The position numbers were made by a program, and so were the translations under genes. 64,000 nucleotides of DNA from Octopus vulgaris (Eukaryota): NCBI GenBank assembly GCA_951406725.2, contig OX597828.1, forward strand, positions 41,974,001 through 42,038,000. The letters run 5' to 3'. The notes below the pieces were generated by a model. It worked only from the letters and a program-made list of their open reading frames with translations, searched no databases and was not told the DNA's origin. How positions within the stretch are numbered: position 1 is the first letter of the stretch; each line of letters starts with the position of its first letter. This document shows positions 11,899 to 22,998 of this stretch, one piece after another.

Positions 11899-12980
11899 TG
11901 TTTCTTTATTAGCCACACAGGGCTGCACACAGATAGAACAAATTACAAGGTAGAGCTTTTCTTTTGAAGGGTTAAAAAAAAAAAAAAAGGAAGGGGGAGT
12001 TTCGATCAAAAGGGATCGTAAAAGGAGAGAAAGAGGACAAAAAAGGGGGGTTAAAAAAAAGGGGGAGAGGAAAAAAATTGATCAATAGGGATCGTTATCA
12101 CAGAAATGTCAATATGAAGTGTAAAGGGGAGGACAGGTGAGGTTTACCCGTGGAAAGAAAAGCCTACGGAAAAGACCACGGTAACCTCGGTCAATGAAGT
12201 CACATTTTATATTTCTTTTTTTTTTTTTTTGCAAATAAGCAACTCTCTGTTTTCGATTTCTGGGTTCATAGGACTATGCTCAAGGTGGCTTCGTCATTCA
12301 TACGTGCCATTCTTGCTACATTCACCCATCTTTTTTTAAAACATTCGCTAGACAAAACTTGCCTCTCTACTCTCACTTTCCTTTTCAAGTGGTACTTGAA
12401 GAAGTTGATGAGAGATTGACCAGAGAGGAAAGTGTTTGTCTCCAATCCTTTCAGACGCGTCCACCAGATACATTCTTTCGCCATAGCCACAAGGATGATG
12501 AAAATAGCTCTTCCTTCCCGTTTGAAGGAAGGAGGCGTGACAATATTGACGATAGACTCAGCTGATAAACCGACTCGTCCCACACGTGACAGCAGTTGTT
12601 CGACATAAGCCCACAGGTCGGAAATTGTTGGACACTGAACGAGTGCGTGCAGAACGGTTTCGTCGCTCTGACCGCATCTCGGGCAGGTCGGCCCCGTGTT
12701 TCTCGAGCCGTGTCTGTAGAGCTTATCCCGAACGGGTAGCGCTTCTCGGTAGCACTGCCAGGCCAGGGATCTCTGGAAGTTGTCCATGGGCCCTGGCCCG
12801 AAAGTCGTCCTGAACAGGCGGGTCAGGTACTCCTCGTCGACGTCCAGGTTCGCCCCGAGCTCGTCGTCGTACCTCCCCTCCACTAAACCCCTATAGAATG
12901 CTTTGGTTGTGTTGAAGTCACTTAAGGTCGACCCAGGACGGCAGAGTTGCTTGAGAGCAACGCGACACTCGCGGTGCCAT
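11898..12980 (-). mobile_element. 5'-truncated Tx1/L1-clade LINE: zf-RVT C-terminus (open frame 12266-12979) plus 3' UTR, inserted in (TAGA)n
   Basis: FQRSLAWQCYREALPVRDKL...CPRCGQSDETVLHALVQCP (CCHC zf-RVT). The frame is uninterrupted and TAGA arrays lie on both sides. Confidence 0.9.
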
Positions 12981-13033
12981 AGATAGATAGATAGATTGAT
13001 TGATTGATTGATTGATAGATAGATAGATAGATT

Positions 13034-13088
<55 letters not shown>

Positions 13089-13097
13089 TGATTGATT

Positions 13098-13165
<68 letters not shown>

Positions 13166-13324
13166 GATAGATGAGACACGTATACATGCATTAACTATTA
13201 TACCTGCATTCATGTACACCAGAAACACAAGTTGATTGTTTCTCTTGTGAAGGTCAAGCTGGAGCACTGTCTTTTGTACATAAGTTAAAGTAATTCGTAC
13301 ACCACTGACATATCTATCAATCGT

Positions 13325-13468
<144 letters not shown>

Positions 13469-18693: not shown

Positions 18694-19676
18694 CGCAACA
18701 AAAATAAAACAAAATAATAATAGAAAACAAAAACGAAATAATAAAACGAATAAAAATGTACGGAAACAGAAATTTAAAAAACAACAACAATACTATGATT
18801 TGAAATTAAATAATTAAATAATTTGTATAGATTTATTTCACAAAGTTGGGTATGAGTGAGAAAGAGGGAGGGGCAGAGGGGCGAGGTAAATGCTAAAAGA
18901 GAGAGGAGAGACGGAGAGGGAGAGAGACAGAGCGGGTGTAAGAGAATGGAGCGTGGGCGGGAAGAATGAAGAGGAGGAAGAAGCGGAAGAGAAAGAGAAG
19001 AGAAGATTGAAATAAATATGGTGAGAGCCAGACAGAGGAAGAAGGAAGAGAAAGAAGAGCAAGGAGAGAAAAACTATGTGTGTGTGTGTGTGCAATGGAA
19101 ACAGAAGGAATTGGAGAGGTTGAAGAACAGACAATAGATGAGGAGGAGGGGGATTATACGGACAGACAGACGAACAGACAGAGAGATTAAAATGTTTTGA
19201 CTAAAATCTAGAAGAAAAGAAATGTGGAATTAGCGTCTTAATGCGAATTACCGTGACGAAACATTGCCTGTACACATGTACGCATGTATGTATGTATGTA
19301 TGTAAGTATATATGTATGTATGTGTATGTATGTATGTATGTGTGAATGTGTATTTATGTATGTATATATGTATGTATGTATGTATGTATGTACGTATGTA
19401 TGTGCGTGTATGTATCTATATATGCAGGTATGTGTGTATGTATGCATGTACGTATGTGTGAGTTTGTGTATGTGTGCATGTGTATGTGTATATGTATATA
19501 GATATAAATATATATATATATATATATAAAATAAATATAAGAGAGTGGTCACTATATTGATCACTCTAGCACCAGTTAATCCAAAAGGTTTCAACCACGA
19601 AAAATACATGTTTCCCATGAAAGCCAGTACGACTGTTAGCTCACACGGACAGGACAAATAAAAAATAACAAAAATA

Positions 19677-19770
19677 CAGATTATTTTGGGACAATTGTTT
19701 CGCTATTAATGAATTAAATGTAATATTACCTACAATAATCCATTTGTAGCTCTTCAGCCAAGACTATCTG
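19677..19770 (-). ncRNA. Type I hammerhead ribozyme, array unit 1
   Basis: Reverse complement of the motif at 21796-21889. Confidence 0.88.
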
Positions 19771-20210
19771 GATGAAATCCACTCAATCACACGCCAGATT
19801 TTACCATAACGATAAATACGCGTGCGGTTCAATTGATTACATCGGACGTTATAATTCAAATGCCCCAACCAACAGCGCGCCAAACTCTCACGGAAAACAA
19901 ATACAGCATTTAGAAATAAATGCAGCATAATTATAATTAATTAATAAGGGTGAGAGAATTAGATACTAATTTAATAGTATATCTATTCCACACCAAGTGG
20001 CCTAGTGCTACGAGAAACCTGGATTATTATAATATTTTATAATATATTATAATATTTTCACAAAATAAATATAAGAGAGTGGTCACTATATTGATCACTC
20101 TAGCACCAGTTAATCCAAAAGGTTTCAACCACGAAAAATACATGTTTCCCATGAAAGCCAGTACGACTGTTAGCTCACACGGACAGGACAAATAAAAAAT
20201 AACAAAAATA

Positions 20211-20304
20211 CAGATTATTTTGGGACAATTGTTTCGCTATTAATGAATTAAATGTAATATTACCTACAATAATCCATTTGTAGCTCTTCAGCCAAGACTA
20301 TCTG
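20211..20304 (-). ncRNA. Type I hammerhead ribozyme, array unit 2
   Basis: Identical motif, offset +534. Confidence 0.88.
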
Positions 20305-20744
20305 GATGAAATCCACTCAATCACACGCCAGATTTTACCATAACGATAAATACGCGTGCGGTTCAATTGATTACATCGGACGTTATAATTCAAATACCCC
20401 AACCAACAGCGCGCCAAACTCTCACGGAAAACAAATACAGCATTTAGAAATAAATGCAGCATAATTATAATTAATTAATAAGGGTGAGAGAATTAGATAC
20501 TAATTTAATAGTATATCTATTCCACACCAAGTGGCCTAGTGCTACGAGAAACCTGGATTATTATAATATTTTATAATATATTATAATATTTTCACAAAAT
20601 AAATATAAGAGAGTGGTCACTATATTGATCACTCTAGCACCAGTTAATCCAAAAGGTTTCAACCACGAAAAATACATGTTTCCCATGAAAGCCAGTACGA
20701 CTGTTAGCTCACACGGACAGGACAAATAAAAAATAACAAAAATA

Positions 20745-20838
20745 CAGATTATTTTGGGACAATTGTTTCGCTATTAATGAATTAAATGTAATATTACCTA
20801 CAATAATCCATTTGTAGCTCTTCAGCCAAGACTATCTG
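20745..20838 (-). ncRNA. Type I hammerhead ribozyme, array unit 3
   Basis: Identical motif, offset +1068. Confidence 0.88.
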
Positions 20839-21278
20839 GATGAAATCCACTCAATCACACGCCAGATTTTACCATAACGATAAATACGCGTGCGGTTCAA
20901 TTGATTACATCGGACGTTATAATTCAAATGCCCCAACCAACAGCGCGCCAAACTCTCACGGAAAACAAATACAGCATTTAGAAATAAATGCAGCATAATT
21001 ATAATTAATTAATAAGGGTGAGAGAATTAGATACTAATTTAATAGTATATCTATTCCACACCAAGTGGCCTAGTGCTACGAGAAACCTGGATTATTATAA
21101 TATTTTATAATATATTATAATATTTTCACAAAATAAATATAAGAGAGTGGTCACTATATTGATCACTCTAGCACCAGTTAATCCAAAAGGTTTCAACCAC
21201 GAAAAATACATGTTTCCCATGAAAGCCAGTACGACTGTTAGCTCACACGGACAGGACAAATAAAAAATAACAAAAATA

Positions 21279-21372
21279 CAGATTATTTTGGGACAATTGT
21301 TTCGCTATTAATGAATTAAATGTAATATTACCTACAATAATCCATTTGTAGCTCTTCAGCCAAGACTATCTG
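21279..21372 (-). ncRNA. Type I hammerhead ribozyme, array unit 4
   Basis: Identical motif, offset +1602. Confidence 0.88.
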
Positions 21373-21795
21373 GATGAAATCCACTCAATCACACGCCAGA
21401 TTTTACCATAACGATAAATACGCGTGCGGTTCAATTGATTACATCGGACGTTATAATTCAAATGCCCCAACCAACAGCGCGCCAAACTCTCACGGAAAAC
21501 AAATACAGCATTTAGAAATAAATGCAGCATAATTATAATTAATTAATAAGGGTGAGAGAATTAGATACTAATTTAATAGTATATCTATTCCACACCAAGT
21601 GGCCTAGTGCTACGAGAAACCTGGATTATTATAATATTTTATAATATATTATAATATTTTCACAAAATAAATATAAGAGAGTGGTCACTATATTGATCAC
21701 TCTAGCACCAGTTAATCCAAAAGGTTTCAACCACGAAAAATACATGTTTCCCATGAAAGCCAGTACGACTGGCGTGTGATTGAGTGGATTTCATC

Positions 21796-21889
21796 CAGAT
21801 AGTCTTGGCTGAAGAGCTACAAATGGATTATTGTAGGTAATATTACATTTAATTCATTAATAGCGAAACAATTGTCCCAAAATAATCTG
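21796..21889 (+). ncRNA. Type I hammerhead ribozyme, first inverted unit
   Basis: CAGAUAGUCUUGG-CUGAAGA(21809-15)-GCUA..AAUGGAUUA...UAAUUCAUU..UAGC-GAAA(21865-68)-C-AAUU-GUC^(21876)-CCAAAAUAAUCUG. All core nucleotides are canonical. Confidence 0.9.
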
Positions 21890-22329
21890 TATTTTTGTTA
21901 TTTTTTATTTGTCCTGTCCGTGTGAGCTAACAGTCGTACTGGCTTTCATGGGAAACATGTATTTTTCGTGGTTGAAACCTTTTGGATTAACTGGTGCTAG
22001 AGTGATCAATATAGTGACCACTCTCTTATATTTATTTTGTGAAAATATTATAATATATTATAAAATATTATAATAATCCAGGTTTCTCGTAGCACTAGGC
22101 CACTTGGTGTGGAATAGATATACTATTAAATTAGTATCTAATTCTCTCACCCTTATTAATTAATTATAATTATGCTGCATTTATTTCTAAATGCTGTATT
22201 TGTTTTCCGTGAGAGTTTGGCGCGCTGTTGGTTGGGGCATTTGAATTATAACGTCCGATGTAATCAATTGAACCGCACGCGTATTTATCGTTATGGTAAA
22301 ATCTGGCGTGTGATTGAGTGGATTTCATC

Positions 22330-22424
22330 CAGATAGTCTTGGCTGAAGAGCTACAAATGGATTATTGTAAGGTAATAGTACATTTAATTCATTAATAGCG
22401 AAACAATTGTCCCAAAATAATCTG
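22330..22424 (+). ncRNA. Type I hammerhead ribozyme, second inverted unit
   Basis: Same motif. The two differences (a 1-nt insertion and T>G) are confined to the tip of stem II. Confidence 0.88.
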
Positions 22425-22735
22425 TATTTTTGTTATTTTTTATTTGTCCTGTCCGTGTGAGCTAACAGTCGTACTGGCTTTCATGGGAAACATGTATTTT
22501 TCGTGGTTGAAACCTTTTGGATTAACTGGTGCTAGAGTGATCAATATAGTGACCACTCTCTTATATTTATTTTGTGAAAATATTATAATATATTATAAAA
22601 TATTATAATAATCCAGGTTTCTCGTAGCACTAGGCCACTTGGTGTGGAATAGATATACTATTAAATTAGTATCTAATTCTCTCACCCTTATTAATTAATT
22701 ATATATATATATACATATATATATGCATATATATA

Positions 22736-22841
<106 letters not shown>

Positions 22842-22844
22842 GTG

Positions 22845-22998
22845 AAGGGGCAATGGCCCAGTGGTTAAGGTAAGGCAGCGGACTCGCGGCCGTAGGATCG
22901 CAGTTTCGATTCCCAGACCGGGCGTTGTGAGTGTTTATTCAGCGAAAACACTCCACGAGACTTCAGCAGTGGTTGGTGCCGAACCCTACTGTACTCTT
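22845..22998 (+). mobile_element. Short tRNA-derived SINE inside (TA)n
   Basis: A box tggcccagtggttaag and B box gtttcgattccc. Confidence 0.6.

Follow-up and report, generated by a model that had tools for sequence, protein, structure and literature searches.

EN+ Penelope-like elements (PLEs) have been described as carrying an inverted pLTR and an optional tail of 30–40 bp (PMC3846280, PMC8557442), the tail being present "often only at one end" (PMC8557442, Fig. 2 legend), and how their tandem or inverted insertions and the one-sided tail arise is counted among the unanswered questions (PMC8557442). As for the enzymatic activity, Poseidon protein in purified form acts on both strands, cutting and extending each; it begins at two internal RNA sites which define the tail, and is predicted to form a dimer, while the start site used in vitro was no different between the strands (PMC11167929). 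Metazoan non-LTR retrozymes constitute the second relevant group. These non-coding, low-GC tandem repeats are dispersed in the genome and bear a type I hammerhead in all units; copying from circles by a PLE enzyme has been proposed for them (PMC7229834; bioRxiv 10.64898/2026.07.22.740005), and their insertion route is presented as a hypothesis only (PMC7229834).

The stretch of DNA analysed here, 64,000 nucleotides of the Octopus vulgaris genome (GCA_951406725.2, contig OX597828.1, positions 41,974,001 to 42,038,000; hereafter the window), holds an array of a 534-bp unit, the two arms of which run in opposite orientations between two parts of a (TA)n target. Its features are as follows, with phase 0 of the unit set at position 19528:

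19489..19527, no strand: left part of the (TA)n target
19528..21771, minus strand: B arm, 2244 nt or 4.20 laps of the 534-bp retrozyme unit, with the ribozyme-sense 3' end at the left flank
19528..19545, minus strand: site B, a fixed outer end at phase about 0–5, the upstream "no-tail" site in the RNA sense
19686..19761, minus strand: hammerhead motif of the first B-arm lap, repeated at 20220–20295, 20754–20829 and 21288–21363
21769..21771, no strand: 5'-5' inversion junction, a 3-nt CTG microhomology joining phase 107 to phase 269
21769..22703, plus strand: A arm, inverted, 935 nt or 1.75 laps, with the ribozyme-sense 3' end at the right flank
21805..21880, plus strand: type I hammerhead motif of the A arm, with the CTGAAGA core at 21809–21815, GAAA and a short palindromic helix III; predicted cleavage after 21876
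22339..22415, plus strand: second hammerhead motif of the A arm, with two changes in the helix II extension; predicted cleavage after 22411
22574..22703, plus strand: B-to-A segment of 130 nt, the putative positional equivalent of the Penelope "tail"
22685..22703, plus strand: site A, a fixed outer end at phase about 404–406, 130 nt downstream of B in the RNA sense
22704..22841, no strand: right part of the (TA)n target

The preliminary description of this DNA had reported an orientation flip near 21770 through a CTG microhomology, ribozyme-sense 3' ends pointing outward into (TA)n, more than four laps on one side against about 1.75 on the other, and outer ends that do not coincide with the cleavage site. 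All of this was borne out: the arms overlap by the CTG, the hammerhead motif lies on the minus strand in the left arm and on the plus strand in the right arm, the lap numbers are those given above, and the array ends at phase 0 (left) and phase 404 (right), with the predicted cleavage site at phase 161/162. The right outer end falls at 22700–22703, the final TATA being common to the array and the flank. The junction has a palindrome spacer of about 160 nt. The left arm contains a single substitution over its 4.2 laps, and the right arm one substitution together with a 1-nt insertion near 22370–22380.

Other copies were sought throughout the genome (2.8 Gb, 227 contigs) and compiled in three sets: the 40 loci scored among 815 candidates, the window array (locus L070) included; 60 of 70 loci found on contig 1 with a strict pattern for an A end in (TA)n (2 others were already in the first set and the last 8 were left out); and the first 20 contig-1 B ends that have no strict A partner and lie outside the first set. 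Two loci, L127 and L129, were dropped because they have a flank in common with L075; the three represent a single two-arm insertion present with its flank in three copies on contig 1, the L129 copy being one lap shorter. The final sample of 118 loci consists of 69 closed two-arm loci, 47 single-arm loci, one that extends beyond the fetched stretch (L114) and one complex locus (L113).

We found that the polarity is the same in 69/69 closed two-arm loci (+ then -, with the 3' ends outward), and that 68 of them possess one end at A (phase 398–424) and one at B (phase 530–16), with no A/A and no B/B pair. The remaining locus, L048, has a B end with the hairpin skipped, and L038 was scored as A though it ends 19 nt early. 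The anchored sets are a cleaner test of this one-site-per-end rule: the second arm ends at B in 36/36 closed loci of the A-anchored set and at A in 4/4 closed loci of the B-anchored set. Strict A-end matches number 785 genome-wide and B-end matches 347 on one strand; both ends are thus common, and independent choice would yield at most about 0.5 mixed pairs per locus. The inversion is a family rule and not an accident. The longer arm is A in 40 and B in 29 of the 69 loci, and both arms exceed one lap in 21/69. The preliminary description had taken the two ends of the window array for different points of the unit. They do differ, but they are not free points, as the copies use two fixed sites, one per end. 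It had also set the combination of fixed ends and random polarity against its own reading; fixed ends were found, and random polarity was not.

We considered free priming at any AT-rich spot and rejected it, since a TA-richer stretch of the unit (phases about 499–527) is unused and an insertion in a non-TA target, L032, keeps both ends.

In turn, the single-arm copies have scattered 5' phases. Some of their 5' ends cluster at TA-like spots, namely at phase 29 (L035, L188, L189, L194, L198), and others lie at phases 411–415, at site A (L186, L190, L191), which suggests that they were joined to the flank through microhomology, or that a minimal A arm is present. In two further loci, the outer B lap of L052 and the A arm of L187, single laps rich in short deletions stand beside intact laps.

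The unit itself, with its type I hammerhead motif, fits a non-LTR retrozyme, and its cleavage and circularity are predictions from sequence. The motif occurs in each unit, on one strand only. Its parts are helix I, the CUGAAGA core, a helix II with a closing G-C pair, the GAAA, a GUC where the cut is predicted and a short helix III, whose palindromic loop is that of metazoan motifs thought to act as dimers (PMC4209133). A search of Rfam at the gathering score gave no match in the window. Among the 85–91 loci compared, the free position N7 differs in 32, and the other core and helix positions differ in 0–2, except for two distal helix I positions (26 and 4 loci). The predicted circular fold of the ribozyme strand has an MFE of -149 kcal/mol vs. 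-109 for 40 shuffles (z = -7.2), and that of the opposite strand reaches -114 kcal/mol. The repeat is short, tandem, non-coding, low in GC and dispersed, with 221 unit matches from the 40 scored loci of the 815 candidates. Within the array, no reading frame of at least 150 aa is real, except for one that enters from the flanking microsatellite, and the RT + GIY-YIG frame of an autonomous PLE is absent from this non-coding sequence. The insertion signature of PLEs is present, i.e., an inverted 5' arm, two 3' ends and a microsatellite target. In all these respects of composition, dispersal and motif content the unit resembles the metazoan non-LTR retrozymes; it differs in its arms and ends, as the parts of the two retrozyme papers available to us mention no inverted arms, fixed ends or priming sites (PMC7229834; bioRxiv 10.64898/2026.07.22.740005).

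Target duplications were detected in 3/115 loci, compared with a shuffled-pair mean of 0.05; they measure at least 13 bp, in agreement with the duplications of more than 4 bp that retrozymes show when these are present, and all three are in two-arm loci. That of L032, 13–14 bp long, lies in a non-TA site where the A and B ends are unchanged. In pure (TA)n targets, the window included, duplications are unreadable. At one locus (L109; C1:143445057-143445113) the no-tail end of a PLE adjoins a retrozyme A end within one TA tract, so that the two share a target.

With respect to the template, the two arms of a locus carry a common haplotype. In the 56 loci with at least 60 shared positions, to which the comparison was limited, 257 variants are common to the two arms, which disagree at 35 of the 19,402 shared positions; L092 is an exception, its arms being 5.5% different. 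The four private changes of the window array are present in both of its arms and absent from the other 39 loci of the first set. Such a common haplotype is compatible with one source locus as well as with one RNA molecule. The laps are likewise uniform: in the 47 loci with at least three laps, 219 variants are fixed across laps, 86 are singletons and 11 are intermediate, which implies a single-unit bottleneck somewhere in the cycle, as a circle supplies, and also fits a uniform multimer transcribed from a uniform source array. Two long arrays, L114 and L118, contain two or three haplotypes mixed in both arms; one monomeric circle cannot produce them, and the mixture hints at multimeric templates, template switching or later conversion. 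On the whole, we lean slightly toward a monomeric circle copied for several laps rather than an uncleaved multimer. A cleaved linear monomer was also tried as the template and rejected, as junction ends coincide with the cleavage site in 2/138 cases, with 1.3 expected.

The same rule recurs in two other families of this genome. A sister retrozyme (L062:5451-6110; 2522 candidates) has a 537-bp unit, 62% identical, with a different helix I and often C for U4 in the core, and keeps both sites. In 30 of its loci, scored by eye with 1.5-kb flanks, 11 have two arms; 9/11 of these are mixed and none has the same site at both ends, though 2 of the 9 mixed loci stop about 15–25 nt short of B and 2/11 have one non-site end.

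A GIY-YIG search also revealed a young autonomous PLE family with many intact RT + GIY-YIG frames of 781 aa, which we take to be Neptune-like. The target of this element is (TA)n, and its two 3' ends are separated by the classic tail of about 40 nt. The tail-anchored sample (20 copies of 117 matches) contains 11 copies in which an inverted arm closes, one that extends beyond the fetched stretch and 8 single ones; all 11 closed inverted arms end at or next to the no-tail site (the L215 arm is diverged). None of 20 no-tail-anchored copies (of 674 matches) is inverted. The 20 loci selected by ORF add three inverted copies, again tail/no-tail, so that the tail is at one end only in 14/14 inverted copies. 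Several arms of both kinds in the autonomous element (L161-L180, L201-L240) stop just past a TATA-like box, which is probably the RNA 5' end; both arms of L212 reach this stop. A hammerhead scan of one copy of the element gave no match. The rule thus also holds in an element where no ribozyme was detected, and is therefore independent of a circle. We found no significant match between the 534-bp unit and the PLE in 20 intact-ORF loci or 30 GIY-YIG loci; sharing no sequence with the retrozyme, the autonomous element is a parallel case and not a proven partner. The resemblance to inverted Penelope structures, already pointed out in the preliminary description, is supported by these comparisons.

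We propose, with a probability of roughly 0.7, that the array arose by two-ended target-primed reverse transcription of the Penelope type, with one start site per end. A Penelope-type endonuclease/reverse transcriptase, plausibly acting as a dimer, would cut both (TA)n strands with a stagger, and each broken 3' end would prime one cDNA on the same template, each at its own fixed site, sites A and B being the presumed starts of reverse transcription. The two cDNAs would halt independently at variable lengths and would then be linked by end-joining. Pairs of the A/A and B/B types may be excluded by a fixed geometry of the complex or by the first cDNA covering its own site. By analogy with Poseidon (PMC11167929), the 130-nt B-to-A segment (22574–22703) would be the positional counterpart of the Penelope "tail". 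Several observations count against this explanation, namely an excess of near-palindromic junctions, the failure of the 781-aa element and the GIY-YIG loci to reveal a mobilising partner, the L114/L118 mixtures, the divergence of the L092 arms, the complex L113 and the non-site ends in 2/11 sister loci.

Poseidon PAc is similar in its two internal start sites, AT-rich target, cutting and extension of both strands and homology-free priming (PMC11167929). It differs in that the in vitro substrate is an unprocessed linear RNA (PMC11167929), whereas the genomic rule described here implies coordinated ends. The lack of a strand difference in the Poseidon start site in vitro is the counter-point to a one-site-per-end rule (PMC11167929), and for the same reason the exclusion of same/same pairs is new information. 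More tentatively, the PLE machinery may work as an asymmetric pair that loads both ends of a double-strand break onto two dedicated start sites of one RNA, the tail being the spacer between them, and on a ribozyme-made circle both enzymes would roll for several laps by strand displacement; we regard this extension as possible but somewhat doubtful.

The preliminary description had likened the array to twin priming, with both ends of a (TA)n break starting cDNA on a circle or multimer. The two-ended origin and the continuous template agree with our data (one polarity in all closed loci, shared haplotype, passage through the cut site), but the process differs from that of L1. In L1 twin priming, the poly(A) end and a variable internal site are primed and the arms do not overlap. 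The priming by both target ends, the outward 3' ends and the junction microhomology are alike; here, in contrast, the two sites are internal and neither of them varies, the sequences of the arms overlap, and the junction end is not tied to the start of the other arm, lying within 15 nt of it in 6/69 loci, where about 8 are expected.

Microhomology is present at 26 of the 69 junctions and an insert at 32, the other 11 being blunt; the mean microhomology is 1.84 nt (37 junctions) vs. 0.77 nt at random. Their geometry bears on the most serious alternative, in which a single cDNA, started at one DNA end, would fold back and be copied into a hairpin, with the endonuclease resolving it at staggered sites and leaving a tail at one end. 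Self-priming has been proposed for the Penelope inverted repeats (PMC3846280), as has resolution by the endonuclease (PMC8557442). Such a course would suit the common haplotype of the arms, the perfect hairpin at some junctions (e.g., L072, L094) and the excess of near-palindromic junctions, as spacers of ≤30 nt occur in 21/69 loci vs. 8 expected (KS p = 0.008). Yet short spacers would also result if both cDNAs ran off at the same RNA break, and the other 48/69 junctions have spacers of more than 30 nt, with scattered values up to 265 nt. Either arm may be the longer one by whole laps, and the joined points of the non-tandem 781-aa element are about 1.1 kb (L206) or 2.4–2.6 kb (L207, L219) apart and are thus not hairpins. 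Sites with a minor variant in both arms amount to 7/88, without a clean mirror pattern, a comparison of weak power. Taken together, we consider fold-back self-priming unlikely.

A long-read fold-back or assembly artefact has a far smaller chance of being the explanation. No contig of the four runs X1, X15, X2 and X6 bridges the window junction, so that the check in independent data called for in the preliminary description did not succeed at this locus and the junction at 21770 rests on the assembly; this hole in coverage proves nothing, as the insertion may be absent from those samples. Against an artefact, one rule holds across 69 loci with distinct flanks and junctions, the inverted arm enters a new flank and never returns into the first, target duplications exist, and contigs of the public runs X1, X2 and X9 hold at least 12 cross-arm joints of the same polarity at a depth of 38–74.

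Tandem arrays beside microsatellites are unstable, and a secondary inversion or break-induced template switch in a single-arm array after insertion would account for the shared haplotype; but it predicts arbitrary phases at the outer ends, and the fixed second end in every closed anchored locus, in one polarity, largely refutes this highly improbable scenario. A DNA transposon of the foldback type, in which the terminal inverted repeats are modular and the internal deletions vary, would match the long inverted arms of tandem units, the variable centres and the TA-rich targets, but is just as hard to credit, as the termini differ (A vs. B), the arms of a locus match each other better than the same arm elsewhere (clustering of left arms by side instead of by locus was not seen), single-arm copies have scattered 5' phases, and variation in the hammerhead is concentrated at N7, its core and helices being conserved.

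The element is a new member of a known family, and inverted arms and a one-sided tail are already in print for PLEs. Compared with the EN+ PLEs described so far (PMC3846280, PMC8557442), the asymmetry is here counted and near-absolute, the repeat that shows it is non-coding and has a ribozyme motif, the segment between the sites measures 130 nt, and many laps are possible in both arms. Our literature search (subscription papers and supplements lay outside its scope) found no report of this signature in a retrozyme, no count of the asymmetry and no account of a one-site-per-end rule. That the strict rule is seen in three families of one genome (a retrozyme, its sister and an autonomous element) connects the question of the PLE tail with that of retrozyme insertion. 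It yields a sharp prediction for in vitro work with the existing Poseidon system, and is relevant to the internal template choice and circle copying by telomerase-related reverse transcriptases. Should the more tentative reading of an asymmetric pair on a circle hold, retrozyme arrays would directly record double rolling-circle reverse transcription in the genome, and would prove that the PLE machinery serves animal retrozymes.

Two other features of the window were recorded. The right (TA)n flank is adjoined at 22843–22990 by a tRNA-like fragment, presumably of a SINE, which has very high depth in public runs and in which ARAGORN called no tRNA. Finally, a stop-to-stop frame of 359 aa is located at 12266–13345 on the minus strand; its second half seems to resemble the zinc-finger region at the C-terminus of a LINE reverse transcriptase.
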